Positions 1,988-47,750 of a stretch of 64,000 nucleotides of DNA are shown one piece after another. The position numbers and the translations under genes were made by a program. Position 1 is the first letter of the stretch, and each line of letters starts with the position of its first letter. The DNA comes from Lytechinus pictus (Eukaryota). Location of the stretch: contig NC_087245.1 in assembly GCF_037042905.1 (NCBI RefSeq), forward strand, positions 17,176,001 through 17,240,000, given 5' to 3'. Under the pieces are notes generated by a model. It was given only the letters and a program-made list of their open reading frames with translations. It did no database searches and had not been told where the DNA came from.

Positions 1988-4900
1988 GTAATGTTTATAA
2001 TTGTCGTTCTGTTCTTTATTATATAATGTGTGATTTAAAAAAAATTATGTTTAACTTGTCTATAAAGCGAATTAAAAGTTGTTTTAATAAGCACTGCAAT
2101 TATTCTACATGATTATCAAGTTTTAGTAGAGGTCCTGAGTGCTTTTTTATATTTATGAATTTCTTTTCTGCATAAATATTCACTTTTTGTTGTTGTCATT
2201 CTCTCTATATTAATATACATTCATAATGTAAACCCGGTGTGAAAGGAATTTTCCTAACGGAAATAAACATTACATTATAATATATTAATGCTATTATTGA
2301 CTTTCTACTGCTCTCCAGTGATTTACATTAATTCAATTGACAGTTTTCTATACCTGATGTGTTACTTTGTCATTTTGTCGTTGCAATGTTGTTTCCTTAT
2401 TACTTTATTTTTATCATGCGAGTCGTTATGGTCATCAAATAAGTTATCTTTAACTGGTCATTTTTATCCTTTCTGAAAAATGATTTAATCTCTTCTCTCA
2501 ATCTCCTTCACACCATCTAAACATAATCAAGTTGAACATGATGAGTTCGACAGAAGAGACGGTCAATTATGTATACACTCGAAATTGTAGAATGTCATAA
2601 AGTTGTAGCGATATTATAGAATTCTATTTTTCGTCAATCTTTGGAAGGCTAACTCTGCTAGAGAATTATGAAAAGTGAAAATGATGACCTGAAATGTTGT
2701 CGTCATGATGTCCAATTACCTTTGAACGACTAGGTAATACAGTAGAGAAGGTGGCACACTGGGGTGAATTAGCGTGGGGTTAATGAGGTCTACCATCAAC
2801 AAGGATTATTAGACCGTGTCTGACAGCCAGTGCCTCAGGATGTCTTTAGAAGTTTTATATTAAATTCTGAAAACATAATTGAGGAGATGATCATTTTGTC
2901 TTTACCTGGAGAGCAGCGCCAGATTTATCGAAGACAGCAGGCATATGGTATGAGGCTAGGAGCAGTTGTCTGTGGAAAGAATTGCAGTGAAGGAAATGGG
3001 TTTCGTCAATCATATTTAACGTTGAAAATACTTGAATGTAGATATATTATTAAATATTAAATATATTTATTAATTCAATTTGGTGGTTTGTCATCTTGTA
3101 ATTTGTAGATGAAGAGAATGTGAACGGTCAGGGATTATCTATAGAGGAACCAGCTATAACTCTTCCTCGACCAAACGACACTCCCCGCTGCGTTATCGAG
3201 AGTGATTGCACTCACGACAAGGTAGCGTCAACCTTCAACGTCAGGCTATCCAAGGTAGTCAACGGAACACCGCCCTCACCGCCAGCCCCAATACAACACA
3301 ACACGAACACAAACAATAACAAGGAGATGATCTCACCCCCGTCTGAAGTGCAAGAGATATCTCTTTCATCATTCAACAAGACGTCGGTGTCCACCGAGGA
3401 ATCCGCATCAGTGTCCACGCTTGATAACACCGAAAGTTCCTCGGACTATCCCGCTCCTGACACTGCTGATATCGTGAACGGAGGCTCCACCGCTCCTGCA
3501 ATGGATCCACCTTGCTTCCTGGAGCCTTTGAAGGACACTGCCGTCCTGGAGGAGAGCTCGGCCATGCTCAAATGCAAAGTGGTCGGAGAACCTGAACCGG
3601 AAATATACTGGTACAAAGACGGGGTAGAACTGAAGGATGGTAGGAAATATAAACTGGATTTTCCAGATGATGAGGTGGCAGTGTTGATTGTGAAGGAAGC
3701 CGGTCTTGAAGATGCAGGGGAATACACTTGCAAGGCTGTCAACTCAGCTGGAACAAAGGAAAGCAGAGCAGAAATAATCGTTGAAGGTGAGTTTATATGA
3801 TCATTTATTGTTATCACTATATTCATGTACAGCTTATTTCCCAAAGTGACGGAAGCGTTTACAAAATAACTTTAGAAAAAATATACAATAGGCCTATTAG
3901 AATCCATAAATCTGGACTGTGTAAGGAAATCTATCAAGATATATTGATTCTGATACGGTGAAATTTTCATCTTCCTTTTTTTATTGACGTTATAGGCACT
4001 TCTCTTTTTTTAAATGTATTTTGACTTAGACCTACTGACGTTTATTGAAGTGGCCGAGAGCTCAAATTTATTGAATTGATGATTCATATTCTTAACGTTT
4101 GATCCAAAATGAATTTAGAAAGATATATCAAAATGAGAATGATGATCAAAGGCAGAGTTATCATCATACAAGGAAAGTTTATTGTTTTCGTGCAAATATA
4201 CACACATAATTATGACCATCGAAATCTCAAAATGTCGGATAAAAAATCCTCTTGACAGGTAAAACGCTGGATTTCAATATCATGAACTTGATGAAAGTTT
4301 TGAGGGATTTTGTGACGATTTGATTTTATTAAGTATCATCACATCAACTATTATTCTCTGCTATAAGTCTACCGAGATTATATTTATTTTCGGACAGATG
4401 ATGCCTTTTTTATTAGTTAGCCTGGTTTTAGTTTTGTCTTTTTTTATCATTAATATTCATCGGATCCTATCCATTGGTTCGTGATAAAATGAAACAAAAA
4501 GACATGATTCATGAAAAATCTGTATGATAGCAGCGCGAAAATGCTCAGTTCTTAAGATCAATGTGAATAGATAGCGATGTGGATGAATAAGAACCGTCAA
4601 CATGAAGATAGTGTGTGTACCTCTTATTACCCCCACGTCTTAGCATCAATATTGACTCAATGATTTTATCATATGCACACCCTGTCTTGTTCTGATCGCA
4701 AAATAGATGCACTACTGTCATTCACAATGTCGATTGTACATCTCATTATACTGTTATAACTCACCCCCCCCCCCCTGTCTCCCCCTTAAATTATTCACAA
4801 GATTCATGAGACCTGGATAAAAATGGAATTGTTTTCTGTCTAAGTTATTTTGTATATACATATTTTTTTATTTCTTCAAATTAACAGTTGTTGACGATTC

Positions 4901-7900
4901 ATTTTAATCACTATTAAATCGTTGATCTATCCATGAACTGACCTATTCTAGTTTGTAGTACTTTTTTTTCTTATGTTTTCAAATACGCCATTGATCGTAT
5001 AATTCTAAAATTACCTAATGTTTATAATAATGTGAAGTAGGGTATATGGCTGATGGTATTCTTGAAATATATTTGCTCATTTGTAAAGATTTTCCATGGA
5101 CTGACCCTTAGTTATTTCATCTATTCCTATATTCTAATAATATACGATTGCTTCTTACGTTACTAGTCCTCGAATTGATGTGTTTTAAAAAGAGTATTCT
5201 CAAATCCAGTAAATGTTCTTGTGAAAACCTAGAAGAACCTTGTATAAAATTTGAAAGTTATGTCTCGCCCATCATGCCCATCTTGCTGATACAATCGAGG
5301 GTTACTGTGTCAGTTGTTAGGGAAGTTTACTGAAGTCATTAGTGGCTCAATGTGACGTGACACCGGTGACAATAGATTCAATCGTATATTATACAACCGT
5401 ATTAAGCTTCGGGTCAAAGTTAGACCATGGACCTATAGGTCCATGGTTAGACAGAACATTTATTCGTTGAACTTGTATGGTCATCCAAAATAAATGAGTC
5501 GCCATAGTGTCTTATTTATTTACAAAGCACACCAATTTAGATATAGCGAATAGATAGAAAGGGGTCGATAAAAAGTGATACCGTAAAACTCGACTGGCAT
5601 CATCGGGTACAGATTAGACGGACGAAATGAAATCGAACATTAGGGAATGTTTTTATTCCTTGTGCTCTTCGTCATTTTCGAAACTTTTGGAATCATTTTG
5701 AAAATGTGTCTTCTATCATTAACTCCTTGCGACACTTCCGAACCGCGGAACCGCGGCGCGTTTGGCAAAATTTTGAATCAAACTAATTTTGTCGACCTTT
5801 GGATTTTTATGGATACCAAAGTGTGCCCCCCCCCCCCCGACATTGCTTTTAGTGTTCCGTATATTCTATTATCAACCATCCTCCACCCCACCCTTTCTTT
5901 TCTCTCCCTCTTCTGAATTCTCATTCACAAACGATTTTTTTGTCTTGTATATTGTTATTCTTTTTTCCTTTATATCTGCCATTTATTCATATTTTTTGTA
6001 TTTTGAAACCTTATACAGCTTTTTTTTTAATTAATGCTATTCGGTAAATTGTAATTCTATATAACCTTTCATGATAGCATGTGTACCTACTAGGAGATAG
6101 TAAGTTTTTATGTCGAGAAGATGACACTAAGCGTCGATTATCGGGTTGTAATCGTGGATGCAAACATGTAAACACTAGTCAATTCTTAGAGTGCTTTAGT
6201 ACACAGCGCGTGGAAGGATTTATTGTCTTTTATTTCACCTTAAAGGTACTGAAGAGTGAGTTTCGACATTGATTTGGAACAAATCAAGTCTGAATCTCGT
6301 AGTTGTATGTGTCGAAATTCAATACTGACAGATGAGTGTTTATTTGTACCAAATTATGACATGTGTTATTTGGATAAATAAAAGAATGTGATTTTTGTTT
6401 TCCTTTGGCGATTCTCTTATGAAAGACAGCTACAGAAACTTTAAAATATGTAGGTGTACCTACCATCTATATACAATAGTTTGTTCTGTATATAAAATGC
6501 TATCCACGTTTATTGTTTTTGAAAGTTATATTGTGATTTAGTGAGATTTATTTTCTTTTATGAACCCCTCTATTTCTCTTTCTATTTCGCTTTTTCATTC
6601 TCTTTTTTTTTTTCAGTTTCTTTTTCTGTCCTCTCTACATTTCCTTTCTTTATTGTATTGACAATTATTCATAATTCCAATAATTATGTTCATTTTAGTC
6701 ATCTCTTTTATAGTGTTAAACATTGATAGATCACATTATCTCAATCCCTAGAATAGATCGATAAAGGTCATGCTACAGCTTCTTTGCAAAATAACAGTCT
6801 ACTGGGCAATATTCTTTTTTATGAAGGGGAATCGATTGAGGCAAGTTAGGCGAATGTTTAGCTCCGAGTTGTTTTCTTTTTAAGTGATCCGACCTAGCTA
6901 TGACTAGCACTGACCACTTTACATCAGCCATCATTTGGATACTGACCGAATACCTTCACGTGTCTTAGCTTTCTGTCGTTGTTGGTTTGGACACTGACAA
7001 GAATGAGAATAACCTCGGCAGGTATTTTAAAAAAAATAAAACTTTGAGCATATTATACAATCTACGTTAGTTATTGAAAGCGCTGTGCTATAGAGGGTAA
7101 CGGGGGGGGGGGGGGGGGGCAAGAGGGCATTTGCTCCCTCCTATTGAGGATTGTTCATTTGTTGCCCCCCTCCACTTTGTGTCCACCTTTGCCCCCCCCC
7201 CCCGCCAAAAAATGTTCCTTTGGCCCCCCCCCCCCCCCCCCACAGTTTAAATATCCCGGTGCCGCCACTGCCATTGTCCCCTCTGTGATTGTTCATTGGG
7301 GCCGGGTAAAAGAATAAGGTGTTATCTAATAATTCTTATTTAGTCGTTTCTCTTTACCTTGCAGCTCCAGCATGTATAAAGGATGCCCCTAAGACCCTTC
7401 AGGTCATGGCAGGTCGTGACCTTTCCGTGACCTGTCACTTCGTAGCCATTCCCGAGCCCGATGTTGTGATGTGGAGTAAGAACCGCAAGACGGTCCAAGA
7501 AAACGATCGTGTTCGGATTGATGATACGGACACGAGTACGACGTTGACAGTGTCGAAGGCGACGCATGACGACGGTGGTCGTTATAATCTGTTGGTAGAA
7601 AACGACCTCGGCTCCGATAACGCTGCCATCTACGTTAGTGTATTAGGTAGGATTTTTTTTCATGAAAATACAGTTTCATATTTCATTTCCCTCAAAAATA
7701 TTTTTCGGGTTTTGTAATAATGTAGGGAAAGTCACAGGATGATGAAATAATTATGTGCGCTTTGATCTTGGGATGAAAATATAAATGCTATTATCTTCAT
7801 TTTCGAAACCATTTTTGTATTGATGGTTAAACAATAAATTTAATTGAATTGAAAGAGAGATATTTTGTATATGGAATCTGCGGAATATGCCTTTTCTGCA

Positions 7901-10900
7901 ATGTACTATAATATCGATCAAGATTTTTTGGCGGTGAAACAGCGTTTTCTGATTGTATTTGGATGCTCTAGCATTCACGTACCTTCCAAAGGTCGGACTC
8001 TTTATGTTTTTATAAGCGCATCATATGATAATCATTATGATTATTTTGGTAATTGCAGACAAACCCGACCCACCAGTCGGCAAGCCCATCGCATCAAACA
8101 TAAACAGACAGTCATTGACGCTTTCGTGGACGGGGTCGAGTTACGACGGTGGTAGTAGGATTACTGGCTATGTGATTGAAATGCGAACCGTCGATGACGA
8201 TAATTGGCAAAAAGCTGAAGTCGTATCGAACACATCACACACCATCGACAACCTCAGACCGGAAACCGAGTATCTCTTCCGGGTTAGCTCGGAGAATGAA
8301 TATGGAATAAGCAAACCAGGCCAAGAAAGCGATCGTATACTGACAGTTGTTGAAAAGAAGGAGGATATGAGAACGACAGTAACAGAAAGTAAGACAGATT
8401 GGATTCTTTGAAGAAATAATCATTTATTTGTTCTTGCAATATTGTTGGTATGTCTACTTACCATGACCAAGCGTCATGTTCTCAAAGAAAATGATTGAGT
8501 GAAATAAAATGTTAGGTCTACTAAATCTAAATTAGATGTGGAAAATCTACACAGGGGGGTGTTTTTTTTTTAATTGATTTTTTTTCTCAACTCTTAAATT
8601 GCAAAAGAATCTCCGTATGTTCCTATTCCGTTTGATAATATACTTTGGAATTTAAGAGAATAGGAAGAAAGTAGATCCTGTGTAGATTTTCCGCATTTAG
8701 ATTTGTTTGATCAAACGCAACTATTTGAAAGTGAATATTGGTCATTTATTCTGAATAATGAAGTTGTAGGTATTCTTTTGTTATTTTTACTGTATGTTTG
8801 GATGAAGTATATCCTTCAAAAAAATCTTCCCTTGTTTGCGATGAACATTGCTATGAATATCATTTGACAACATAGTAAATGATACATATATTTTTCCCTT
8901 GACCAATGTTTAGATGATGTGGAAGAAATTGAATTCCGTCACGTGACCATCAAATCGGATAAAGAATTTTCAGAAAAGTACCAGATCAAAGATGTCCTCG
9001 GAAAGTAAGTATAACTATATATCTCTTTCATAGAATACCCATTCTGAGAATGACCCGATGGCGGTTATAAGTGAATATTAGTAACACCTTCTTTCTTTTT
9101 AATATAAACCATTATAAGCTGTCGTTTTGAGTGGGTTGTTTTGTAAATGAAAAGACCTGTTTCTTAATATTACGAAAGTCGCCGCCGATTATTTGTAATT
9201 TACATATTCATCTTCAGTTATATCAGTCATTTGCCCTTCCCAACCGGACGAATATCAAAATTTTGTTGTTGTTGTTGTTGTTATTAAGGTAACTCAATAT
9301 GCATATTCATTCCACCCTATTAGAAATGATGACTGGCTTAAACTGTATTGTGCACTTTCTAAAATGGAAACAAAAGTTTGAATATACTAAATGATGGTTG
9401 ATATCAGAATCAGAGAATCTATCAACGAAAATAAGCAACGTTCCTTCGCCCGATGTTGCCCTTTACTTCACTAACCTTTCTTGCAATGTCTCTGTTTCTC
9501 GCCATCAGAGGGCGTTTCGGAACGGTCCATAAATGTATCGATAAGGTGACTGGCAAGCCATACGCAGCCAAGATGATTAAAACCATCAAGAGCACTGACA
9601 AAGACTCGGTCAAGAATGAGATTGGGATCATGAATAAGCTCCACCATGCTAAACTCCTGCAATGTCTAGATGCCTTCGAATCGCCTAAACAGATGATTAT
9701 GGTCCTGGAGATGTAAGTTATTTTAGCTCTTCATAAAACGATCAAAGAATAAACTTCAAATTGAAATTTAAAAACAATATACGTATAGAGAAAATTTACT
9801 AAAATCATATAGACATGATATATTGAAGACACGATGTATTTACGAACGCAAGAGACCTCTCTTACCAGCTGTCACTCATTGTCACGGCGGCCACCATTTT
9901 TGGATGGTGGGAATGTTGTTGTTTTTCAAAACATATTGGTATTGATTGAATAACAGGTTGGGCTTTTTTTGTCGTTGCATAACTTTTAAAAAGATAATTA
10001 TGATCTACAGCAATGTAAGAGCTAGATGAGACATAATTGAACTGTCCCTAAGCGATGATGAGACATTCACCGGGATTACATGGTTTATTTTCTTCTTTTT
10101 TTAATTTTCTAAATTTCCATATTTTAGTGTGAACGGCGGAGAGCTCTTCGAGAGGGTGATTGATGACGACTTTGGGTTGACGGAGAGTGACGTCATCGAA
10201 TTCATGCGTCAGATATGCGCAGGAGTACAACACATGCACTCCACAAATATTCTACATCTAGACCTCAAACCAGAAAATATCTTGTGCATAGACAAAACGG
10301 GTAGCCGTATCAAACTCATTGACTTTGGCCTAGCAAGGGAATTCAATCCAGCTCAAAGCACAAAGGTCATGTTCGGCACACCGGAGTTCGTAGCCCCGGA
10401 AGTAATCAACTATGATGTCATAGGTTTCACTACCGATATGTGGAGCGTTGGTGTCATCTGCTATATCTTGTAAGTAACAGTTCATAGATTATTATGATTT
10501 AATGATTGGAATTAATAATACCAGAACATTATTTTAGTGTATTTCTCACGATATGCATCTTTGGGATAGATAAAAGAATGATTCTTCTTGGAGAGTCCGA
10601 ACTAATTTGATGTAGATACCTTGTACCTTGTAGTACTGAAGTAGCTGGATTTCTATATTTTTGTTATACCGAGATTTTTTACCTGACTGCTAAGAAAGCA
10701 CGAATGCCTGTGAGCAAGCAACCAGTGGACCAACGGCCTAAGGTCCTCTCCGAGGGACCTGGTAATGAGGATAAATGCCTTACCAAAGGGCACTAGCTCA
10801 CCACTTTGGAATCGAACCCGGGTCACCGGAATCCGAAACCCCCGCTCTACCGACTGAGCTATATTATTGCGTCATACCAAAAATTTATGTCATTCAATGA

Positions 10901-13900
10901 GATCATATCAGCAAACATTACCTCGTTTTGAAAATACATGTTTTAATTTTTTTTCATGATTCCTACTCAGGTATAATTTTATCTTGGAAGCGAAACCGTT
11001 GCGCATACACGTCGAAAATTGAAATCAATGTTAATGATGATCGAATTAACCATAAACAAATTGAATACGAAAAAAATATACATTTATATATATATACTGA
11101 AGATTTATATATGAAAGATATCAGCCCGCCGAGGGCCAATTGTGTTTTGGGTGATAAATGAATGTAGTCCGTGACGTGATCGGCAAATTCTTTTGAAATA
11201 GAACGAATGATAGAATGTGAACCTTCTTTGATATTTATCTTCGATTATGAATGTCTTGCATTTCTTTGATATATATAGATTAAGTGGATTATCACCGTTC
11301 ATGGGTGATAACGATGCCGAGACATTGAATAATGTCACACTAGCTGAATGGGACTTTGAGGATGAAGCTTTTGATACTATCTCAGAAGATGCGAAGACAT
11401 TCATTGAAGGTCTCCTGATCCAGAGGAAAGAGTGAGTAAATAAATTACAATTCATCATTGTCATTATCATCATCATAATCGATAATCGTCACCTAAAACA
11501 TCATGATCTGCTTCTTCAACATTTTCCACCACCATCCTCCTCCTCCTCCTCATCATCATTTTGTCATCGTCATCACCCCCACCCCTCGTCATCATTTTCA
11601 TTTTCAAATAAAGGCTATGTAAATCCACTAGCTCAAACTTCATTCTTTTTATCCGAGCGATTCGGCACCCAATTGACGAGAACATCAGGGTCGAATCTAA
11701 AAAAAAATCAACGAGGATTGGCATGACCTATTCTTTAAGCTGGGGTAATAAATGATGTGACTTGCTTTGATTAAAATAAAAGATTTTTTTTAATCTTGGG
11801 GTTATCTTACAGAGAAAGAATGACAGCAGCCGAGTGCTTACAACATAAATGGCTTGTCACAGACTCCAAGGAACTGAAATGCAACAAGATCAGTACGACA
11901 AAACTCAAGAACTTTGTAGCAAGAAGACGATGGCAGGTAAGCACGAATGACAGTAAATTTCACCCCCCCCCATTTGGTCACGTGGTATCATGTAGATCGC
12001 TTAGATTTTGTCTTTAGAACCTAAAGGTGTAATAGTAGTCGAATTGTAATTATTTCACACAATTTTGAGATTCGAAATTTCGAACGATGGATAAACCACA
12101 AATAGTTGTCTTTTAAATAATATTAGCTATAAGCTTAGACAGTTCTGCCTATATAGCAGCTTATAGGATAATTGTGTATTAGATGTTTTGCTTTTTGTGG
12201 CTTTTTAGTCTGTAGATATGTGGGGTTCCAAACTGGATATTATCATCTGTCACTACTTTGATGTCAGTAATGTCGCTTTATTCTTGTTGTTTTGTTATGT
12301 ATGCACCGCTATCAGAATACTTTCGAAAAAATTCTTCACCACTTTGTCATTTGTCCATTATCATTAAAATGTCACTTTGTTGTATGTTTGTTTAAATGCT
12401 ACCTTTTAAAGTAAAAGTCTTACAAAAAAAAACGTAATACAAAGCTTAGCGATCATCATAGAACATTTTGTGTACATTGATTGCATTGACTACAATGTAC
12501 AATCAAAATCAAGCGTACGATTAATTGCTCAACTTTGTGTTACGGGACCCTGGTCTCAAGGTTTTGTGATTCATGTGGGGGTAAAATATTAATGAATCTT
12601 AAGTCTGCAAATGCGAATTTAATTGATAACATGGTGTGATTTATTGTTAGAATGTAGTTTCATCTCGTTCTTGTACACAACGGCTTTTTGGGGACAAATG
12701 TATGACATATTATTTCCCATGCATTCACAAATTGAATCTTTCATGCAACGCAGTTAGACAGACACATATTTGCATTCTTTGTAGATCTTCCAAATCGTGT
12801 GATTGGTGAAATGTTTATTTCTTGCTTTCCTTGTCCCTCTTCGTTGTTGAAACAGTCTGATTCAAGTGAATCTAATCAAGAATCTACGAACGATGACTCA
12901 TCTGATGAAACAGTATGTCTGGTTTTATAATATAACATTGGTTTGAAGTGGTTATTAACTTGGAACCATATACCGGGTTGGTGTGAAGACTAACTAATTT
13001 TTCAACTACTTGTGTGTTGTGCTGCTAACCCTATATACAAAGTCATATAACGAAAAGCCTAGTAAAAGTAGATAAACATATAGTAGATCTGTTCAATCTC
13101 GAGAAAGAAAAGTTGTTGCAATGAGGACTAGTCAGCTGCTGACTATGTTCATGTTGTTAACAGCCTATATTCTCTGTTAACAATTTGTTTTCTCTCGAAA
13201 GGCTTTTCAGATATTTCGAGAATACGTCACCGTGGTTTGTTTCATTAATGGTTTATGTATATCATTTATTGTTCATTTATTTCGTTGAGCAGAATATACC
13301 CGACGGCTATTATAGGGACCTATGCAAATTTGAATTAACATTTATTCAGTTGGTATTGTATATTTCCGTTTAAATGTACTTCCAAAATAAATTGATCATA
13401 ATGGGACGCCAGTTTCGTTTGTCGTATACCGGGGTTGTTATATAGAAATAAATAATGGATACTGCGAACATACATCTTTTGAAGTGTGTGATTAAACATA
13501 GCCAGATACTTATTAGACAGAAAATACCTTAAATATTTTAGAAGGGACAAAGGAAATTTCGTGAAAATAACTCGAAGTGTTAGATACTCTAAATAAGCAA
13601 GAATAGTTATGAAACTTGTGATGGGTTGAATTGAAAAACAACATTGGTTTTATCATTCACTCTTACATTCCGATGTTTGATCAAACAGTTGATGTGAAAT
13701 ATTAACTTGTTCCCAATTTCAATACCAATGTATATACTGGTGTGATATATTAATATCATCCATTTTCTAAACACATTTTTAAATCATCATTAAACCTTGT
13801 CTCAAGTGACATGATTGATTATATTTTCTATTAACCATGTTAAGAGAAAACTTCTGGAAACTTGTACATGTAACGCCACCAAATATTTTCGCGCCCGCGA

Positions 13901-15147
13901 TTATATTTATTAGATGAAAATTATTTAAATACATAAATTGTAATAACATATATGATGAATACATTATAAATATTAGAAAGGTTAACTAAAATAGTATATT
14001 AGAATTAATTTCAAACATTATAATGATTTATTGTTCCAACGATTCCATTGATCAAAATATTTTCTTTAAATCTCTCTGTATTCAATATCTTTCTTATGGA
14101 TTTATTTTATTATCCTCGGAAATAATATACATGTATTTCATGAGTTAGAGATTGTTGAGTAGAGGTGATTGGCCCCCTTTTGAATCAATCAATGATATAT
14201 TGCAATCAGATTACATCCCATTTTCCTCAGAAAGCATTTCGTCAGTTTAGGGTTATATTAGGTTTGGTAAATTTAAATGGAATTTATTTATTCTTTGAAT
14301 TGCAGAGCACATAACAGCTGATTTGCATTGTTGTGTAGTCCTCATAAAACCATCTAATATTAGGTCCCATAGCTGTATAACTGCTATAATTATAATTTCA
14401 ATTTACGCTCTTTTACTCTGTGACATACAGAAAACAGCGACCGCAGTCCGAGCAATCGGCAGAATGGCATCTTTGTCACTGTTTGGTAGCAGCAAGAAAT
14501 CTGGTGAGAATAGCAACAACCTGCGAAGCCAATCATCGCCCTCATCGAAAGACAAATCGCCATCGACACCGACAACGCCATCAATGATCACGGAAGACGA
14601 GGACAAAGCGATAAACAATGATGCTCAGATAGAGAAGCGCTCCGGGCCAATGCACAAAGACGAGTCGAAAGAAATGGTCGCTGAAGCTATCGTTAGTAAA
14701 GTCCAGGAAAATGAGCATGATTCTAAAATAACAGACAATGATGTGACATCGAATGAGCGACAAAATGGCGACGACGAGAGCGACGATGAATCGGAGGAGG
14801 AAGTAGAAGATGATATCGACGGTCCAGGCAAACAAGATTTAAATCAGAACATTCCAGGCGCACCTCATTTTATCAAGGAAATGGTGGACTGTGAGGTCTT
14901 CGAAGGGGACAGCGCCCGCTTTGATTGCCAGGTAGCAGGCGACCCGGAGCCTGATATCAAATGGTTACAAGATGGCGAGGAGATTGAGGAGAGCTCAAGA
15001 TTTATCTTTGACTACGATGATGATGGTATGTGCTCCCTCATTATTAGGAGGATCCAGGAAGATGACGAGGGCGAATATTGTATAAAAGCGACCAACTCTA
15101 AAGGCGAGGCATCGTGCATTGCCGATTTACTTGTCGAAGGATTTTAA
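1871..15147 (+). CDS. MYLK: Myosin light chain kinase (smooth-muscle/non-muscle MLCK type), 5'-incomplete multi-exon gene
   Basis: Phase-consistent GT-AG exons 1871-1987, 3109-3786, 7365-7646, 8059-8388, 8914-9004, 9509-9712, 10128-10469, 11279-11431, 11813-11936, 14431-15147. They give Ig-Ig-Ig-FN3-kinase (GKGRFG, HLDLKPEN, DFG, GTPEFVAPE), a CaM-binding segment ARRRWQKTATAVRAIGR and a C-terminal Ig, which is the MLCK domain order. Confidence 0.93.
3109..3786 (+). CDS. MYLK: MLCK exon: Pro/Ser/Thr-rich linker plus I-set Ig domain
   Basis: TAG acceptor, GTGAGT donor; PPCFLEPL...CKVVGEPEPEIYWYKDG...DAGEYTCKAVN. Confidence 0.9.
7365..7646 (+). CDS. MYLK: MLCK exon: I-set Ig domain
   Basis: CAG acceptor, GTAGGA donor, phase 1-1; ...PEPDVVMWSKN...DDGGRYNLLVENDLG. 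Confidence 0.88.
8059..8388 (+). CDS. MYLK: MLCK exon: fibronectin type III domain
   Basis: DKPDPP...LSWTGSSYDGGSRITGYVIE...LRPETEYLFRVSSENEYG; CAG acceptor, GTAAGA donor. Confidence 0.9.
8522..8704. mobile_element. Degenerate MITE-like inverted repeat in an MLCK intron
   Basis: AAATCTAAA..GTGGAAAATCTACACAGG versus CCTGTGTAGATTTTCCGCATTTAGATTT, plus inner CTCTTAAATT/AATTTAAGAG. Confidence 0.5.
8914..9004 (+). CDS. MYLK: MLCK exon: linker into kinase N-lobe
   Basis: DVEEIEFRHVTIKSDKEFSEKYQIKDVLGK; TAG acceptor, GTAAGT donor; phases match both neighbours (too short for the ORF track). Confidence 0.85.
9509..9712 (+). CDS. MYLK: MLCK exon: kinase subdomains I-V
   Basis: GRFGTVHKC...YAAKMIK...VKNEIGIMNKLHHAKLLQCLDAFE; CAG acceptor, GTAAGT donor. 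Confidence 0.92.
10128..10469 (+). CDS. MYLK: MLCK exon: kinase catalytic and activation loops
   Basis: GGELFERV, HLDLKPENI, DFGLAR, FGTPEFVAPE, DMWSVGVI; TAG acceptor, GTAAGT donor. Confidence 0.93.
10660..10870 (-). mobile_element. tRNA-derived SINE
   Basis: Minus strand has A box TAGCTCAGTCGGTAGAGCG and B box GGTTCGATTCC, then a non-tRNA body (GTGCCCTTTGGTAAGGCATTTATCCTC...). Its 3' tail recurs at 45611-45653. Confidence 0.8.
11279..11431 (+). CDS. MYLK: MLCK exon: kinase C-lobe
   Basis: LSGLSPFMGDNDAETLNNVT...FDTISEDAKTFI; TAG acceptor, GTGAGT donor. Confidence 0.92.
11813..11936 (+). CDS. MYLK: MLCK exon: kinase end, autoinhibitory segment and first half of CaM-binding helix
   Basis: ERMTAAECLQHKWL...KLKNFVARRRWQ; CAG acceptor, GTAAGC donor, phase 0 end. 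Confidence 0.9.
12856..12912 (+). CDS. Candidate alternatively spliced 57-nt MLCK cassette exon (SDSSESNQESTNDDSSDET)
   Basis: Long pyrimidine tract then AACAG acceptor, ACA/GTATGT donor, stop-free, phase 0-0 matching the flanking MLCK exons; no transcript evidence. Confidence 0.55.
14431..15147 (+). CDS. MYLK: MLCK terminal coding exon: second half of CaM-binding helix, acidic linker, telokin-like Ig domain, stop
   Basis: CAG acceptor at 14430; KTATAVRAIGRMAS...PHFIKEM...ARFDCQVAGDPEPDIKWLQDG...DEGEYCIKATN; TAA at 15145-15147. Confidence 0.92.
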   Translation, partial: KTATAVRAIGRMASLSLFGSSKKSGENSNNLRSQSSPSSKDKSPSTPTTPSMITEDEDKAINNDAQIEKRSGPMHKDESKEMVAEAIVSKVQENEHDSKITDNDVTSNERQNGDDESDDESEEEVEDDIDGPGKQDLNQNIPGAPHFIKEMVDCEVFEGDSARFDCQVAGDPEPDIKWLQDGEEIEESSRFIFDYDDDGMCSLIIRRIQEDDEGEYCIKATNSKGEASCIADLLVEGF

Positions 15148-18100
15148 TAACTACTTTACTATGTGAACTTATTACTTGCGATGCTGACATTTTTACATGA
15201 AAGGATTATTGGATAGCTATTTACGTTGTATAGATAATAATCTCTGATGTTAAGTGTGTAGATTTTAGATATTTGTACAAATAAATACTTATGAAAATTG
15301 GATTTGAAGAAAACTGCCATTTAGCCTTCAGATGGTGTCTTGGCAAAGTGACCTTATGGAAACGAGTTAACTTGGTTATGATCCCACCAGATTTTGTTGC
15401 ATTGAAATAATTATGAAACCACCGTGAAAATAGCGTTGTTATTAAAAGTTTCTTCTTATCAGTGATTTATATTAAAATGTGAATATTTTAATTACCGAAA
15501 ACAGACGCAACATAAAAATATATTACATATATGCACACCTGGATTGTATAACCTCCGTATATAAACTTTTTATATGTACATGTGTATGTTTTTTTAACAA
15601 ATCAAATGGATCACTTTCAATATTTACACAATCATGGTAATTCGAAATAACATTATAAAAAGAAAAATATAAAATTGAAACAAAATAAGTTCTTATGTGA
15701 ACTTTTCACCCAAGTTTTATGTATTTTTTAGATGAAATTAAATTGAATTGTGAGTGTGGTGAGTATAGATCATTAATGAGAACGATGTAAAGGTTTGATA
15801 ATATAGTCATAAAGTTTGAATAATGTATAGATACATATATTTTCCGTAAGGATTCATCGTGATGTATTCAGGAATTTATTCCCTCCGAGCTGCCAAACTG
15901 TAAGGAGGATTTGATCTCTAAAGAGAAAAATAATTATGTAGAATGATGTACAGTTCATAACGGAAATATTAACGTATTTTTTATGCGTAAACACGATGTA
16001 GAGTACATGTATATAGTAAGACTTTAATAATAGCATATAAGCGATATTTTGATTCGTAATGTTTTATCTAATCTATCGATGTAAGTGAAGTTTCATTGAC
16101 ATAACGCCTTATCTATTTTGTAAAGATATTTTATGAACGTTGTATATTCTGGGCGTTCCTAGTGACGTTACCCCCTCTTTCCCTTCCCTTTTTCTACCCA
16201 CCCGTCCCTCTTTCCCTTTCTCTTCTTCTTGCATTTATACACCCCCCCCCCCTTTCCTCCATGCCAATCTCCATTTTTATCAATGAGAAGTGTTGGTTGC
16301 ATTATGTTGGGATTATTTTGTTAACTTTGAAGAATATGATGCTAACTTATTTAGAAGCACATGCCTAATCTGATACTATAAGGCTTTTTATTAATCTACA
16401 AGGTATTATTTATGTCACGATTTGAATTTTTATCACTGTCATATTCAATCTGATATATTCCTTTCAGTTCTGATTTTGCCGCTAGATGAGACCGGGGTCG
16501 GTGCCACAGTTAGCTAAATCAAAGAGTTTGGATCATACATTATGATTTTCTTATGATAAAGGAAGAGGGAGAGAAAAGCTATATACTAGAACGAAATGTT
16601 GAAATGTATCGATAAGAGAATGCCTGATCGAAGAGCTCTATGAAACACATATTTTTTCATTGAGAAAAAGGAAAGCATGAAATAAGCCTATCTGTCCAAT
16701 TTAAAAAAATGATAATTCGTGTATCCTTATAAGAATCATAAGCCATAATTATTATCATTGTATGTTTGTTTTTAATGTCCAGTCGATGGTATTTTATTAT
16801 ATATATATATTTATAGTTTGTAGACTTTTTTTAGCTTTCAGTTCAGCACTTTTTAAAGCACAATGAAATGTGACTCACACGTCGACTTCAGTATTCTTTT
16901 CGTTCCATTCCTAAAAATGCATAATGACCAAATCATTATTATTCATTCCTTAATTATAGGACACTTCCATTGTGACAAAAACAACTATTCCAGATTTACA
17001 AAGACGGTGTGTGTAAGTGTGTATATAGTTTATTGTCATTTTGACGAATATAGACTTTATTTTGTTCAAGGTGATGTTTGATAATATTAGAATTTCAGTT
17101 TGTGATAATGATGCAATTATTATGTAACACTTGCTTATTTGCTTGGTTTCCATGACATTATGAAGCGAAATATTGTAGTATCAAGTCTAAATTAAACACT
17201 ATCGAACCTAACATTATTAAGTTGCTACCATTGATATTAGTGTCAATTTGCTCTTCCAATTCGATTGACAAGTAAATGGGATCACGTGATTGTGTAGCTT
17301 TATGTATTCCAGATGATTATTGTATATTTTGTATATAAATTTGCAGAAAAAAGAATGACTGCAAATGAGCGATAATACACCAATTAAGACTCATGTTGTA
17401 AAGTTGAAGTTGTGAAGATAGTATTGCTTCCATTATATTATATGGCATTGGTAATATACGAATATACTATGCATGTTGTTACTTTTGGCTATTTACAATA
17501 TTTTTGTCATTTTATTCATAATGAATAACCGTTATCATCATCCTAGAAAATATGATTTTGTATCCTTTTCTGAAATGTATTAAAGACAGGTAAAACACAA
17601 AACCTGGAAATCGTCGTTTGTGGTTTATTCATGCAGAGTTTATGATTGATAATTTTGGCAAACATATGTGTTTGCTCAAGAGAGTAGGGCCTGGCGCTGA
17701 TCCATCTTTTCATAATTTGGGGAGGGTTTTGGCACTTGTTACTTTTTTTTTTTAAATGGGGGTTCTTGTTCCAGAGATATAATGAAATTTGCGTCAGTAT
17801 ATTGATTGTGAAAAAGGAGGAAATTTAAAAGTTCACATATTTTCACGAAGTCATGAGCTATAATGCCTTGTCATTTTGGGTCAAAATGGCAATTTTCATG
17901 ATTTTCTGCAATAATGATCAAACGCCCTTCAGATTGACACAGAGGGTATGATATTAAAATTCATTACATTTAGGATAATGTGATACAATTATAAAATTTA
18001 AAAACTGACAATTTTCGAAACGCTCATAAGCTAACCGTTTTCATTTTTGGTCAAGAATTACAATCGTCAAGATATTATGAAATAAAACGCCCATCAAATT

Positions 18101-20839: not shown

Positions 20840-23150
20840 GAAAGTGTGAAATTTGGCATACAGGGGTATTTTTGGGCGCTGATTAAAAAAATTGCCGGCC
20901 CCAAGCAATTTGACCATCGGGTCGGCCGCCATTTTGAAATCCAAGATGGCCGCCATGAAATATCATTAAATGTCAATTTCTTGAGTTTTACATGGCATGT
21001 GACACTGAAATTTGGCATATAGGGGTATTTTGAGGCACTGATTTCAAATATTGCCGGCCCCCAGCAATTTGACCATTTGGTCGGCGGCTAAATGGCCGCC
21101 ATTTTGAAATCCAAGATGGCCGCCATGAACAATCATTAAATGTCATTTTCTTGAGTTTTACATGATATGTGACACTGAAATTTGGCATACAGGGGTATTT
21201 TTGGGCGCTGATTAAAAAAATTGCCGGCCCCAAGCAATTTGACCATCGGGTCGGCCGCCATTTTGAAATCCAAGATGGCCGCCATGAAATATCATTAAAT
21301 GTCAATTTCTTGAGTTTTACATGACGTGTGACATTGAAATTTGGTATGTTGTGGTATATTTAGGCACTGATTTCAAATATTGCCGTCCCCCCCAGCAATT
21401 TGACCACTTGGTCAGCGGCTAAATGGCCGCCATTTTGAAATCCAAGATGGCCGCCATGAACAATCATTAAATGTCATTTTCTTGAGTTTTACATGATATG
21501 TGACACTGAAATTTGGCATATAGGCTTAATTTGGGGTTCTGATTTCAAATATTGCCAACCCCAAGTGATTTGACCATCGGGTCGGCCGCCATTTTGAAAT
21601 CCAAGATGGCCGCCATGAGAAATCATTAATGTCACTTTCTTGAGTTTTACATGATTTGTGACACTGAAATTTGGTATGTTGGCGTATTTTTAGGCACTGA
21701 TTTCAAATATTGCCGGCCCCCAGCAATTTGACCACTTGGTCAGCGGCTAAATTGCAGCAATTTTGAAATTCAAGATGGCCGCCATGAAAAATCATTAAAT
21801 GTCATTTTCTTAAGTTTTACATGATATGTGACACTAAAAATTTGGCATATAGGCTTAATTCGGGGTGCTGATTTCAAATATTGCCGGCCTCAAGCGATTT
21901 GACCATCGGGTCAGCCGCCATTTGAAATCAAGATGGCCGCCATGAAAAATCTTTGAACTCATTTTCTTGAATTTTACATATGTGCCACTGAAATTTGTAG
22001 TATATCGGTATCTGGGTGAGTTAATTTAAAAAATTGCTGGCTCCAAGCAATCTGACAATTGGTCGGCGGAAAAATGGCCATCAACTTGAATTCGAAGCTG
22101 GCTGCCATAGAAATATTGCAATTATTTTGTTGAGTTTTATATGATCTGCGGTATTGCACTTTGACATATAGAAGTAGTGTGGGGAGCTTATTTCAAATAT
22201 TGCTGGCCCGCAGCGATCTGATCCCCTGAGTCAGGGTTATACGGGCCAAAGATTTTCATTCGAGCCAACCCATTTAATTCTCAATTTTTAATTTTGATAT
22301 TGCTGATTTACAAAAATGAATGAATACATGTATGATTGATATTCTAACACTGATTCTAGGGAGGGTAACTTTACTGAACTTCCCTTTTTTCAAATTGGGA
22401 AGATATATCACCACTTTGGAACTATTTTTATACTGGCGGGAGAAGTATTGCCATTTTACTGTCTCAAGTGATGAATTTGATCCTGTCAGGTGTAGTCTTC
22501 ATAAATGCCGATTTATTTTTAAAATGAGCTGGTCGAGGTACCCTTTTCTGGTCAGATATGGAATGTCCAACATATATCCTATCCACTGGTAGTAAACACT
22601 AAACCCTCGAATTTCATCCTTTTTTTTAGAGCGCCTCTTTAACACACGAGTATATGGGAAATGTTTTAGGCCCGTGATCCCTTAGCTGCAAAATGGCAGC
22701 CATCTTGAAATCCAAGATGGCTGCCATAAAAAAATCATTATAAAAATCAAGTATCATAATTATAACGTAGGTATTATTTTGAAATTTGGCATCTTGGGGT
22801 ATTGAAATTTCCCCCAGTAATCTGTCCAATAGATATGCTGCAAAATGGCCATTATCTTTAAATCTAGAGAGGATCGACTGTCATGAAAATTCATTAAAAT
22901 CATTTTCTTGAGTTCTAAATAATTTGAGGCACTGCATTTTAGACATACAGGCAGGTTTTGGCTTGCTGGTTTTAGAATATTGCTGCCCCAGTGATTGATC
23001 CACCGGGTCAGCTGAAAATGACCGTCACTTTGAAATCTAAGATGGCTACTACGAAATATCTTTTAAAAATGTTTTCCTGAATTCTACATTACCTGTGACA
23101 CTGTAAATTGGTATTAAGAAGCAAAAACTTGTATTGTATGTTAATTTCAA
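20840..23150 (+). repeat. Left-arm tandem array (alternating ~170/~159-bp units, decaying inward)
   Basis: CAAGATGGCCGCCATG recurs at about 20941, 21111, 21270, 21442, 21601, 21770, 21928. Confidence 0.9.
22234..22681. mobile_element. Harbinger/PIF-like MITE inserted in the left arm only
   Basis: Imperfect TIRs GGGTTATACGGGCCAAA / TTTAGGCCCGTGATCCC, TCA/TTA flanks; the empty site is visible in the right arm near 28335. Confidence 0.55.
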
Positions 23151-27961: not shown

Positions 27962-28029
27962 TAAAGAGTTAAACCATCAGTACTTCAAGTCTGGAGCAGT
28001 TTTCTTCATGTCGATTTGTAATAAAATGT

Positions 28030-29990
28030 CACAATTATTGGAGCAATATTCTGAAACCAGCAGGCCAAAAACCTGCCTGTATGTCTAAAATGCAGTGCCT
28101 CAAATTATTTAAAACCAAGAAAATGATTTTAATGAATTTTCATGACAGTCGATCCTCTCTAGATTTCAAGATGGTGGCCATTTTGCAGCATATCTATTGG
28201 ACAGATTTCAATATCCCTAGATGCCAAATTTTAAAATAATACATTACGTGATACTAGATAAAGTGATTTTTTTTTCGATGATCTTTTTTAATGGCAGCTA
28301 TCTTGGATTTCATGATGGCTGACATTTTGCTTCTGACTCAGGGGATCAGATCGCTGAGGGCCAGCAATATTTGATATAAGCACCCCACACTCCGTCGATA
28401 TGTCAAAGTGCAATACTGCAGATCATATAAAACTCAAAGAAATAATTTACAGCCTCTCAACGGAAAATGATTGTTCCGGATGGTTATTATTCAACCAAAG
28501 CCACTTCAAATGTGTAACTGCAGAAGAAGCTAGCTGGTTTGTGTATTCATGGTGTTTCATACTTACGTTACATCTATATCAGCAGTTAAGGGTGCCAAAG
28601 TATTATAATCCTTGCAACGGACAAAGATGTGGTTGTGTTGGATTTGTTTTCAGTGCCAATACAATGGGTTTTACTCACCATTATAATGTTGTACATCATT
28701 CAAACTTGGTAACCATATTGGAATTCAAAATAGCATCTATTTATTATGTTTTTTTCATTGATCAACGATGCAAATATCAAGTTTTTCTCCAAATTCAAAG
28801 TGTTAAAGGCCATACGTGAGACTTGAGCAAATTATCTTTCATGGCAGCCATCTTGTATTTCAAAATGGCAAACAGGGGTCTGACAATAATCAGTGCCTAA
28901 ATATATGCCTATATGACAACTTTCAGGGCCAGATTTCATATAAAACTCAAGACAATTATTATTGCTTTTAATTCATGGCGGTTATTTTGCCAAAACCCGG
29001 TGGTTACAGGCTGGTGGCCGGCAAAAATCAGTGCCACGTACTTCTGTATGCCAAAGTTTGGTGTCATATATAATGTAAAATCCAAGAAAATTATTTTGAT
29101 ATGGTTTTTCATTGCAGCCATCTTGCCGCTGAACTGATGGTCAGATCACTTGTAGTTGGCAATATTTGAAATCAGCACCCCAAAATAGGTACTCTATTTG
29201 CCAAAGTTCAGAGCACATGTAAAATTAAAGAAAATGATCTTAAGTGATTTTCATGGCGGCCATCTTAGATTTCAAGATGGCGGCTATTTGAAATAAGTGC
29301 CCTAAACTACACCTACACTGTATATGCTAAATTTCAATACCATAGCTCATTCAAAACTAGAGAAAATTCATGGCGGCCATCTTGGATTTCAAAATGGCGG
29401 CCATTTAGCAGCCGGCCAAATGGTCAAATTGCTGGGGGCCGGCAATATTTGAAATCAGTGCCTAAAAATACCCCAACATACCAAATTTCAGTGTCACACG
29501 TCATGTAAAACTCAAGAAAGTGACATTAATGATTTCTCATGGCGCCCATCTAAGATTTCAAAATGGCGGCCGACCCGATGGTCAAATCACTTGGGGCCGG
29601 CAATATTTGAAATCAGCACCCCAAATTATGCCTATATGCCAAATTTCAATACTGCAGTTCATATAAAACTCGAGAAAATGATTGCAATAATATATCATGG
29701 CCGCCATCTTGGATTTCAAGATGGCGGCCATTTTGCCGCCAACCAAATGATCAAATTGCTGGGGGCTGGCAATATTTGAAATCAGTGCCTCAAAATACCC
29801 CTATATGCCAAATTTCAGTGTCACATGTCATGTAAAACTCAAGAAATTGACATTTAATGATTTTTCATGGCGGCCATCTTGGATTTCAAAATAGCGGCCG
29901 ACCCGATGGTCAAATCGCTTGGGGCCGGCAATTTTTGAAATCAGCGCCCGAAAATACCCCTGTATGCCAAATTTCATACTTTCTGCCAGA
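28030..29990 (-). repeat. Right-arm tandem array, reverse complement of the left arm
   Basis: CATGGCGGCCATCTTGGATTTCAAAATGGCGGCC-type units at about 29870, 29700, 29540, 29370, 29255; 28040-28210 is the reverse complement of 22820-22985. Confidence 0.9.
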
Positions 29991-33737: not shown

Positions 33738-36072
33738 TATAACAACTTTATATTTTTTACATTTTCTTCTAAAGTTAAATTCCTTAGTGACCCTTATTTT
33801 CCTCTAATATGCATATTATTTTATACATCTGAAGCAACATCAAGGCACATTCACTACGCTCACTTGCCGTAAGCTTTAAGTCTCCCCTATATACTTACAA
33901 AACCTTTCAAAGACGGGCCGTCATTCAGTCTTCTAACTTCTGAAAATCTGCTCGCTTGCTTCGCTCGCTCGTACATTAAAATGTATGTACGGTCAGCCCC
34001 AATTGTAATTCAGTAGTTTATATGACAACATATTGTCACCACCAACAGCCCCCAAAATTGTGATATAGACGGGTACATAGTATCATGTACGTGTTTTACA
34101 TAGACATGTGGGGGGTATATTCTCCCCGGAATTTTCAGCTCATTATACCCCCCCCCCCCCCTCCAATTGCTTGGACCAGATTTACGCCTCTTTGAACATG
34201 TTGGAAACAGTCTTTATGAATAGCGGTCTTGAGAATCACTGGCCCTTGGTGAACAACCCTCCTTGTAAGTCGACCTTACCCCCAATCCACCCCACGAATG
34301 GATAAAATACCCCGATAATCATACCCATTCAAGAAAGTTATTGTGTAAGGCCTATATGTTTTCGTGGTGTGGACGTGGTGGCTGCATTCTCTACTATGAA
34401 ATCTTCATGACCGACAGAGGCTCGCAACTGAATACTTTCTAAGGTAAAGGTAAGAAAAAATCTTAGTTTTGCTTAAATAGATGAAGTTATTGTGGCGCTT
34501 TGATCTTATTTTGGTATCGCTATAAGTTGGTAGGTAATTAGTGATTGCGTCAAGGAAAAGGTTATTTCTTTTCGGAAAGTGCTAAGACGGAAAAACGAAA
34601 TTCTACAGATTCTTCCATCACCATATGGCGTGATCTCTACTTGTCTGACATAATTGACTACATGTTCAATTACGTTCGAATTTCATAAGCTTTATAAACA
34701 AAAGTGATCATTTACAACCAGATAGCTTGCCAAGGACCTATTAAGTGTAGCAGCAAAATATATATGTATGGAAACTGAATTTTAAGTATTTTACTTCATT
34801 CAGTACAGTAATACCAATGTTAAAAGCATATCTCGGTAAAACAAGAAAACGAGAAGATAACTCGATAATTTGAAGCGCTGAGTTAACAGTATTTTGTTTT
34901 TTATATTGATCATAACAATTCCTATAACGAGCAATACATCTGACATTTCATTGAGTATGTTCTTTTATTTTACTTTGAGATGCTACAACAAGGCAAACAT
35001 ATTGTTTTTGGAAACGGGTCGGTCTAACATATACATGGAGTTCAGTTTGGACACTATATATTCCATCGCTTTAATCCAGTGATCTCCCAAGCATGCCTTT
35101 ACATAGTCCACGTCTTGGACGATCTCTATTGATTGGACTAGCCTTTACAATGCATTAAACCACGCATTGCATAACCCCATTGAATATATAGTCTCATCTT
35201 CTTTTGTGGACGCCTTTCAATTTTCGCATGCAAAAACCATGTAAAGTACATTGTAGTAAAGTACATGATGCGCTCGGAAAGTGGACGGACCAATGGTCCA
35301 AAGAGGCATATGTCCAACATTCAATGGGGGCCTGGCTAGACCGGGCTGATCATACTTTAAACCATGGAGCTATTAATAGCTCTATGTTTAAACATTGCCA
35401 GACAAGAGACAAAGGAAAATGATGAAGAGAGACTGGTGAAATTTCATCCACCCACGGAGGGGGGGGGGGGGGAATCAAGTCCTATCAACCATTATTGGCG
35501 ACCTGCATGCATACAACTTATCACTTTGATTTCACTCACCGTTTGGGCCTATACCAAGACGTCACCATCATATTTACATAAAACTATCGAATCATAACAA
35601 ACTCGTATTAAGCATAGAAATTCGTTATAAGTTCATCATTTATAAAATACAGACTCTAATAATATAAAAACCATTGATCAGTATGCATTCATGTAGTAGA
35701 AACGTGCGCATATTAAAGTGTTATAAGAGTTAAACGCCTTAATTAGAAAGAAGTATAAACTTCTCAGTGAAGTTTCTATTCATTCCCGGAGGGGCTGACT
35801 AGGCCTTCAGACCTTTAATGAACGTACTTGGCCACAATATTAAAAATGACACTCTTTCAGTTTGTGCAGTCATGGTTTCAATAGAGCTTGGCTTGGGTCC
35901 GGGCTTGGGTGTTGGCTTGAGAAAGCCATATAGTTAACTTCTAATTGTAAACACCCCCTTTATGACTATTGTATCTTCGCAGTTCGATCTTTCAATACCC
36001 TCGATCCAAAACCAGTTTCAATAGTTCAAAGCCTCCAATTTGTAAGAACAGTTTTAAATTTCCTAATCATAA

Positions 36073-36085
36073 ATATATATATATT

Positions 36086-36137
<52 letters not shown>

Positions 36138-36207
36138 ATATATATATATATATACAAATAGGGAGTATGAAACATAATATATATATATGTAGTATATATT
36201 TATATAT

Positions 36208-36270
<63 letters not shown>

Positions 36271-36395
36271 GTGTGTATATATATAATATAAATATATATT
36301 TATTTATATATTTGTATATATTTATATTATACATTTATTATATATTATATATTTATTATATATTATATATTTATATATATATATATATATATATA
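36073..36395. repeat. Interrupted (TA)n microsatellite
   Basis: Direct inspection. Confidence 0.95.
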
Positions 36396-46900: not shown

Positions 46901-47750
46901 CGACGTCTTCGACAGATTCATGGCCAAAGATACGCGTTATGTTTCTAGCGTGCGTGATCCTGCCGACCAATGGGAGTCTGCATTTAATCATTTCGGATTC
47001 AGAAAAGCCATATCCCAGTTAGCCGATGCTAATGGACAGATGGTCAATATAACGAAGACGCACAAAGTACCTTTTAATGAAAATAATTCTACACTTGATG
47101 CAATCCACGAATTCCTTAGAAAGCCCAAATTGTACTTGGAGGTGCTAAAAAAGAAGGGGAAGGTCATTTATCATTTTGCGAACAACGATCAGACCTACGA
47201 TTTGAGCACGGATCTAGAATCAACGCAGCTTCATGATGAGAAGCTTGTCAATCGGACAATCGACCGACTAGTTGACGAGCTGGATGTTGTCATTGTAAAC
47301 GAATACTTCGATGAATCTCTACTAGTCATGAAGAAGGAATTCTGTTGGGAATTTACAGACATTTTATACATTTCACAGAATAAACGAGCAGTAAAAGAAA
47401 TGTTGCCGGAGAAAACGCGTGCAAAAATTAGAGACTTTAACAGAGCAGATACTCTACTTCATCAGCGCTTCAATGATTCCCTGTGGAAGAAGATCGAAGC
47501 CTACGGACCAGATTTTCAGAAAGACCTAAATCATTATAGACAAATGTTGATTGATGTCAATTCAGAATGTTCTGCCGAAGGCAAGTCCAAGAAACATGGC
47601 TTTAATTACCAAATATACAATGTAAAGGCAAAGAAGAATGCAACCCTATTTTGTAGATTTATGGCGGATAACTTTTTAATGACATTTAGGAGAGTCTTTG
47701 AAAGACAGCGTAATCAGACGATCATCAAAACGCGAAAGATCAAACAATAG
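42131..47750 (+). CDS. GAL3ST: Galactose-3-O-sulfotransferase family (GAL3ST/cerebroside sulfotransferase-like) type II Golgi enzyme, 478 aa, 3 coding exons
   Basis: Exons 42131-42396, 44890-45087, 46778-47750 splice in frame (both introns phase 2; 1437 nt). N-terminal TM GILLIVTLSVTVIVL, 5'-PAPS loop KTHKTGSTT, 3'-phosphate motif RDPADQWESAF, EYFDESLLVMK. Family-level call only. Confidence 0.9.
43295..43892 (-). mobile_element. LINE 3' UTR remnant with (AATC)n tail
   Basis: Minus strand GGACCCCACTGGAAATAAGCTTTCGAGCTTTCGTGGGTCATCC stem-loop, AATAAA, then (ATCA)n. Confidence 0.5.
44890..45087 (+). CDS. GAL3ST: Sulfotransferase exon 2: PAPS-binding loop
   Basis: VVYIKTHKTGSTTLETLFNRFG; TAG acceptor, GTAAGT donor. 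Confidence 0.9.
46559..46687. mobile_element. Small Harbinger-like MITE (related copy at about 12430-12550)
   Basis: GGGCCCGTAACAC...GTGTTACAGGACC termini, CAG flanks; body shared with 12430-12550. Confidence 0.6.
46778..47750 (+). CDS. GAL3ST: Sulfotransferase exon 3: remainder of catalytic domain
   Basis: 322-aa ORF with HVRF, RDP..QWESAF, NDQTYDL, EYFDESL, NRADTLLHQRFN. Confidence 0.92.

Follow-up and report, generated by a model that had tools for sequence, protein, structure and literature searches.

The window analysed here comprises 64,000 nucleotides of the Lytechinus pictus genome (contig NC_087245.1, positions 17,176,001 to 17,240,000 of the forward strand), and coordinates are counted from its first letter. 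It carries the last third of a giant two-kinase MLCK (MYLK-like) gene, the full protein of which has ~3,000 residues; kinase 1 is N-terminal and lies, with the first two thirds of the gene, outside the window. Exons in the window were 94-100% identical (tblastn segments) to XP_063954953.1, with an exact fit at all ten junctions. The upstream exons, located on the plus strand by tblastn and junction fitting, encode Ig, Ig, Ig, Fn3 and linker segments (~1873-1987, 3109-3786, 7365-7646, 8059-8388, and 8914-9004), and are followed by three kinase-2 exons (9509-9712, 10128-10469, and 11279-11431, +; 97-100% to XP_063954953.1). Kinase 2 corresponds to a Pkinase domain at residues 1837-2092 of that protein (E 9e-73), its Gly loop, Lys, catalytic and DFG motifs are all present, and its top fold match is human MYLK4, at 55% identity. 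The order Ig-Fn3-kinase-regulatory helix-Ig matches that of smooth-muscle-type MLCK, with a second, N-terminal kinase in addition, and two Pkinase domains were also found in L. variegatus X1. Proteins with two MLCK-type kinase domains were observed in echinoderms, hemichordates, scallop and brachiopod (P0303, P0312, P0175, P0176, P0173, P0180, P0181), and a Glandiceps protein has three kinase-like domains; in such multi-kinase MLCK-like proteins, a calmodulin (CaM)-type helix accompanies most kinases.

The upstream constitutive exon (11813-11936, +), which has exact GT/AG borders, encodes the end of kinase 2, the autoinhibitory helix alphaR1, and the N-terminal half of the CaM-binding helix, including the Trp anchor codon at 11931-11933. 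For the register of this region, we assume that 1082-1101 is equivalent to RS20. Based on the RS20 register and on PMC2116294, the 13 residues that immediately precede the CaM-recognition peptide (11880-11918, +) would be the equivalent of the MLCK autoinhibitory sequence, and they are retained in both isoforms described below. A phase-0 intron (11937-14430, +), whose removal in one piece is seen both in reads and in a contig, interrupts the helix after Trp-Gln and holds the cassette exon that is the subject of this report. The last coding exon (14431-15147, +; tblastn 99% to XP_063954953.1) encodes the C-terminal half of the helix (14431-14466, +), which supplies anchors 8 and 14 when the cassette is skipped, then a disordered acidic tail, a telokin-like Ig domain (~14863-15135; Pfam I-set, E 1e-25) and the stop, with an AATAAA 3' of the exon at 15280. 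The peptide of 14431-14466 matches smMLCK/RS20 in CaM complexes from their sixth or seventh residue, the short query giving E-values of 0.1-0.8.

Several other elements were observed in the window. The part of the intron upstream of the cassette contains a high-copy short repeat (12433-12555) that was matched by hundreds of reads on both strands and by many contigs in both organisms sampled; no internal repeat was found in it at the settings used, and a 78% copy lies at 46564-46688. At 46770-47750 (+) lies a long ORF whose product has a galactose-3-O-sulfotransferase domain (E 1e-30), and 52946-54679 (+) is occupied by a reverse transcriptase ORF and a GIY-YIG ORF behind it, separated by one in-frame stop, an architecture that we take to be that of a decayed Penelope-like retrotransposon. 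Tandem arrays of a 158-171-nt unit lie in opposite orientations at 20847-21997 and 29420-29976, with related pieces near 22600-23060 and 27970-28400, and a long AT dinucleotide run (~166 copies) was found at 36069-36395.

The cassette exon (12856-12912, +) is 57 nt long and in phase 0-0, as judged by junction reads, by translation and by the identical peptide in RefSeq. Its translation, SDSSESNQESTNDDSSDET, has no stop and is inserted directly after the Trp-Gln of the kinase-2 CaM-binding helix. The coordinates, length, frame, translation, pyrimidine tract with AACAG, and GTATGT of the initial annotation were all correct on re-check, as were its nine Ser/Thr and zero basic residues; the 19-residue insert contains seven acidic residues rather than the six that had been counted. 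The 3' splice site (12835-12855, +; pyrimidine tract, AACAG) scored 4.9 and was used in 9 + 4 reads, while the 5' splice site (12913-12918, +; GTATGT) scored 3.5 and was used in 7 + 5. Within 11937-14430, the acceptor ranked 16th of 103 AGs and the donor 22nd of 158 GTs, and both are the weakest of the gene (4.9 vs. 5.8-11.2 for acceptors and 3.5 vs. 7.2-11.0 for donors), in a comparison where the matrix was trained on the gene's other nine introns and the scores of those sites are inflated by construction. The same interval holds 82 stop-free, in-frame AG..GT candidates, at least eight of which outscore the cassette, and sequence alone is therefore insufficient to single it out. The stretch immediately 3' of the exon (12913-13062, +) contains five TGG, two CTAAY and, at 12989, the sole ACTAAY of 11937-14430. 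The TGG and CTAAY counts were each matched by 1.3% of 873 overlapping 150-nt windows from the gene's introns, a figure to be read against the ten motif types tried. These are possible motifs of splicing regulators, and they serve here as a lead only.

To examine use of the exon, RNA was mapped on 11780-15400 for four of 16 listed runs, as raw stranded reads for X14 and X16 and as contigs for X10 and X5. In X14, nine reads (seven starts) joined 11936 to 12856, seven (six starts) joined 12912 to 14431, and three (three starts) skipped the exon; the corresponding numbers in X16 were four, five, and zero. These counts are small, since only ~6 in 100 of each run were sampled, and they give inclusion fractions of 0.73 (interval 0.43-0.92) and 1.0 (0.59-1.0). 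The X10 contigs, from another study of the same organism, contained the skip only, at a depth of 43 and with zero depth in the exon bin, a result drawn from contigs, which lose rare forms. Both inclusion joints were present in the X5 contigs, which come from a relative ~95% similar across the last exon; within the cassette, a single change is listed (12894 T>A, which replaces Asp by Glu). Thus, both inclusion junctions and the skipping junction occur in reads with GT-AG ends, and they fall exactly where the two isoforms had been predicted from the letters (11936-12856 in nine and four reads, and 12912-14431 in seven and five), which settles the reality of the exon. Inclusion predominates in X14 and X16, and the skip is the sole form in X10, as contigs. 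The tissues of these samples are not given and the strong difference between runs may reflect individuals; tissue- or stage-dependent regulation of inclusion is likely.

We consider it very unlikely that the exon lacks a regulatory role and represents tolerated splicing, a telokin-like first exon, or an alternative last exon with its stop five codons past the donor. The weak splice sites would fit such an explanation, as would a depth-4.5 contig of the relative that continues from the exon into the intron and a contig depth that is 2.3-2.8-fold higher on the last exon than on the upstream one. Vertebrate telokin, moreover, begins in this intron (PMC10533999). Against this, the up- and downstream joints had similar counts (9/7 and 4/5), as expected of an internal exon, and raw-read depth showed no step between the upstream exon (22-25 in X14, 10-13 in X16) and the start of the last exon (15-32 and 8-12). 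Since depth in the flanking bins is explained by the exon alone and there is no step in raw reads, an internal cassette is the better description. No CArG box was found in the intron (11937-14430). On these grounds, with the upstream junction as frequent as the downstream one (nine and four reads vs. seven and five), a telokin-like first exon and an alternative last exon were both rejected as the main reading. At 70-100% inclusion, neutrality is also improbable for an insertion midway along a helix that is conserved between insects and vertebrates.

Some signals within the intron were noted separately. X10 contigs covered 13837-14441, the last 600 nt of the intron, at a depth of 15-33, where X14 and X16 had none, and their depth on the last exon was 122 vs. 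43 upstream. The X10 signal may come from a telokin-like RNA that starts within the intron in that sample, or from pre-mRNA. In X14, opposite-strand reads reached a depth of 5.7 at 14200-14320, in that bin only.

The exon had been described as hidden, which is too strong, since RefSeq already has it in protein models for three species of sea urchin. XP_063954953.1 of L. pictus holds the 19-residue insert letter for letter and an older model is without it, so that one of two models for this species carries the insert, as do five of six for L. variegatus and, with 15 of 21 cluster members listed, four of five current and five of six older models for Strongylocentrotus purpuratus. The remaining models of the three species skip exactly the 19 residues, as in the included and skipped pairs XP_041477160.1 vs. 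XP_041477168.1 and XP_030830852.1 vs. XP_030830853.1. Some S. purpuratus models (P0289, P0291, P0292) carry one more Gln ahead of the insert, which suggests a tandem acceptor; the window sequence has none. The retrieved proteins hold 243 occurrences of the motif, 15 of them with an insert, and each of these 15 is in a sea-urchin record; the insert was found in none of 23 sea-star, brittle-star, crinoid and hemichordate records. Neither a sea-cucumber orthologue nor one from a further sea urchin was among the best 120 of 556 matches. A metagenome scan returned 80 loci with a best identity of 78%, too distant to test the cassette in other echinoids, and a word-indexed search with the 41-residue exon gave no candidate.

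L. pictus and S. purpuratus share 16 of 19 insert residues, 85 of 123 residues of the adjoining tail and 246 of 256 kinase residues, and they agree at all 19 of 19 residues of the downstream helix half (2139-2157). On 19 residues, the excess of insert over tail was not significant (P = 0.28), and seven of 17 low-hydrophobicity windows elsewhere also reach 16/19. Base changes in X5 told the same story, with one in 53 exon positions and 39 in 503 intron positions (P = 0.16). The exon is conserved, in frame and with both forms, in three species and two genera, and its identity does not significantly exceed the background. Conservation no better than that of disordered sequence is what an exon without a role would show, but retention of the frame and of both forms in two genera speaks against such an exon, and it is this in-frame presence, not excess identity, that constitutes the evidence of selection. 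No paper on this exon was found in literature searches that covered few subscription journals. In a study of Esrp-dependent sea-urchin exons (PMC5703972), the names MYLK, MLCK, titin and obscurin were absent from six supplements, whose rows may use other identifiers.

Inclusion of the exon splits the CaM-binding helix, as had been proposed. In the skipped form, the 1-8-14 anchors are W1-V8-M14 on a basic amphipathic helix of net charge +6; in the inclusion form they become W1-V27-M33 at a net charge of -1, and there is no contiguous 1-8-14 helix. The 1-8-14 consensus carries a net charge of +3 to +6 (PMC3685217). In PMC2874803, the peptide-side hot spots of the CaM/smMLCK complex are W800, G804, I810, R812, and L813, and the insert separates the Trp from the other four of these five positions, all of which lie downstream of it. 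Because spacing and charge are both disrupted and four hot spots lie beyond the insert, it is highly probable, judging from the sequence, that inclusion abolishes or strongly weakens canonical CaM binding. AlphaFold2 gave pLDDT 86 for the alphaR1 block of the inclusion form and 46-53 for the insert and downstream half, with the helix broken, and 76-81 along a single whole helix in an intact crinoid kinase; this is weak evidence, as two different proteins are compared and the insert has no alignment coverage. The helix of kinase 1 is intact in all eight sea-urchin records carrying kinase 1 in a full-length protein, and for that reason the splice switch touches kinase 2 only, one of the two kinases.

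A further clue to function came from DAPK. The Trp aligns with DAPK W305 by sequence (upstream exon vs. DAPK1 263-306, weak E-values) and in a structural match to 2a27 (model residue 293 on 305, Z 36.3, rmsd 2.2, 291 aligned), which puts insert residue 2, an Asp, at position 308. In DAPK1 and DAPK2, a negative charge at Ser308, three residues past the CaM-anchor Trp, strengthens autoinhibition, and the urchin Asp lies at that same position; DAPK2 S308D is described as 'completely silent' in PMC5931534 (see also PMC4033950). The two systems differ in that DAPK uses reversible phosphorylation of an intact helix, whereas the urchin protein would have a splice-encoded Asp and a 19-residue spacer.

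We suggest, with a probability of about one half, that kinase 2 of the inclusion form is uncoupled from CaM and mostly inhibited. Inclusion breaks the 1-8-14 spacing and removes the positive charge that calmodulin requires, and the grip of Ca2+/CaM would become too weak to detach the regulatory helix. The autoinhibitory segment upstream of the insert, Trp included, would stay docked, with the splice-encoded Asp occupying the position of the inhibitory phospho-Ser308 of DAPK, and the kinase would be left uncoupled from calcium at low basal activity. If kinase 2 is calcium-uncoupled in this manner, the exon would set the number of calcium-responsive kinases per protein at one or two, separately for each cell type. 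The initial annotation had left the choice between a constitutive and a locked-off enzyme; of these, 'locked off or low' has somewhat more in its favour than 'constitutive'. The mostly inhibited kinase is strained by inclusion being the major form in two runs, and more so for models lacking kinase 1, whose exon combinations are predictions that were not read through. Reports on truncation at W800 are said to conflict, the enzyme being either partly active or inactive.

The main rival, possible if doubtful, is that inclusion instead yields a calcium-independent, substantially active kinase 2, in which the insert displaces the cleft-occluding half or binds the Arg cluster and thereby lifts the pseudosubstrate. 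An active product would sit more easily with the predominance of inclusion in two runs. Loss of the downstream half is also seen repeatedly in predicted isoforms (sea stars, decapods, scallop, and two gastropods), which are easier to explain if active. There is also a Drosophila precedent, reportedly of this kind, to which we return below. According to PMC3114093, alphaR1 itself does not block the cleft, and the true autoinhibitor of titin, twitchin and the CaMKs, related kinases, is the tail's more C-terminal portion, which points against a mostly inhibited product. PMCA1a, which is spliced within its CaM-binding domain, has less autoinhibition (PMC8835232). On the other side, mutating the CaM-recognition stretch left autoinhibition in place (PMC2116294), the autoinhibitory segment is intact in the inclusion form, and in DAPK2 an Asp at residue 308 has an inhibitory effect.

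We think it unlikely that the exon acts as a rheostat, with CaM binding either half or spanning the flexible insert and activating kinase 2 at higher Ca2+/CaM, in a manner tunable by phosphorylation. Elements for this are retained, namely an upstream Leu(-9), Val(-5), Trp(0) with 1-5-10-like spacing and a basic amphipathic downstream half conserved at every residue, but the existence of the skipped isoform explains that conservation, and the spanning segment has the negative net charge given above. S/T-x-x-D/E sites at insert positions 6, 10, 11, and 15, which we take to be CK2 sites, are common to the three species, yet such phosphosites arise in acidic peptides by composition. Splice forms of PMCA at site C do vary in CaM affinity (PMC8835232).

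The mostly inhibited, CaM-uncoupled kinase that we prefer can be placed beside several known systems. The RefSeq sea-urchin MLCK models have the same exon, included or skipped, but they are unlabelled predicted isoforms, with no functional comment in the papers searched. Drosophila Stretchin-MLCK resembles the urchin gene as a single MLCK gene with differently regulated isoforms. Splicing of its CaM-binding-domain exon, in the 1996 work of Kojima et al., reportedly gives a Ca2+/CaM-independent, active form; there the regulatory exon is said to be replaced, whereas the urchin exon is an in-frame insertion that keeps both halves of the helix and the C-terminal Ig. At splice site C of PMCA, an exon in the middle of the CaM-binding domain alters CaM affinity and autoinhibition (PMC8835232), as in the urchin proposal, although PMCA is an unrelated P-type pump with many frame-shifting forms, and the urchin protein is a kinase with an in-frame acidic/Ser insert. 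Vertebrate MYLK/telokin shares with the urchin gene the helix, the intron between CaM-domain exons and the C-terminal Ig, but has one kinase and a telokin promoter in the intron, whereas the urchin gene has two kinases. No insert was found at the helix junction of vertebrate records among the best 120 of 556 matches. The arrangement is not a new kind of system, since splicing within a CaM-binding domain is known for PMCA and reported for Drosophila MLCK, and the exon had already been annotated automatically; what is distinct here is an in-frame acidic spacer, with both halves and the C-terminal Ig kept, in one kinase of two.

The position of the intron after Trp-Gln is old. In mouse, intron 27 falls between exons that encode the CaM-binding domain, and the telokin promoter lies inside it (PMC10533999); in the metagenome the helix exon ends in Trp-Gln followed by GT at 16 of 80 loci, with the downstream half behind an AG in five. 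Judged from predicted models, some of which may be annotation artefacts, isoforms appear to vary repeatedly at the same intron in other phyla. In four of the 23 non-urchin ambulacrarian records, all of sea-star type, the reading frame runs on past the junction and meets a stop 5-10 residues later, and a near-identical decapeptide is found in three of the four. Three Penaeus species have a common 12-residue alternative end, and Panulirus a similar one. One of ten scallop cluster records, Argopecten X8, ends in SDISDSD and so starts like the urchin insert, a likeness of seven low-complexity residues; the other nine have the full-length form. The downstream half is dropped in frame in Gigantopelta X5 (one of seven models) and in one of two Patella models, and all three Lingula models are without it. 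The junction variants are P0355 (Argopecten X8), P0315, P0177, P0313, and P0319 (sea stars), P0030, P0334, P0337, and P0051 (decapods), and P0361 and P0063 (gastropods).

We would extend this, speculatively and with more doubt than confidence, to a bilaterian-wide splice hot spot that yields calcium-uncoupled MLCK by different routes, with a Ser-Asp phosphomimic at the DAPK Ser308 position in urchins and scallop. Urchins would use an acidic cassette, sea stars a read-through stop, decapods and scallop alternative last exons, and gastropods an in-frame skip. The Ser-Asp-x-Ser-acid-Ser start shared by urchins and scallop would then reflect either convergence or an exon as old as bilaterians.

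MLCK is the standard textbook example of a calcium-calmodulin switch acting on myosin II. An abundant natural isoform with a split CaM helix offers a test of whether the half of the helix after the Trp takes part in autoinhibition or serves CaM recognition only, and the sea urchin provides a tractable embryo model for that question. The findings suggest that, in invertebrates, splicing at a single ancient intron may adjust how calcium governs contraction, cytokinesis or morphogenesis and, if this is true, splicing in a two-kinase protein would pick between one and two calcium-listening kinases.
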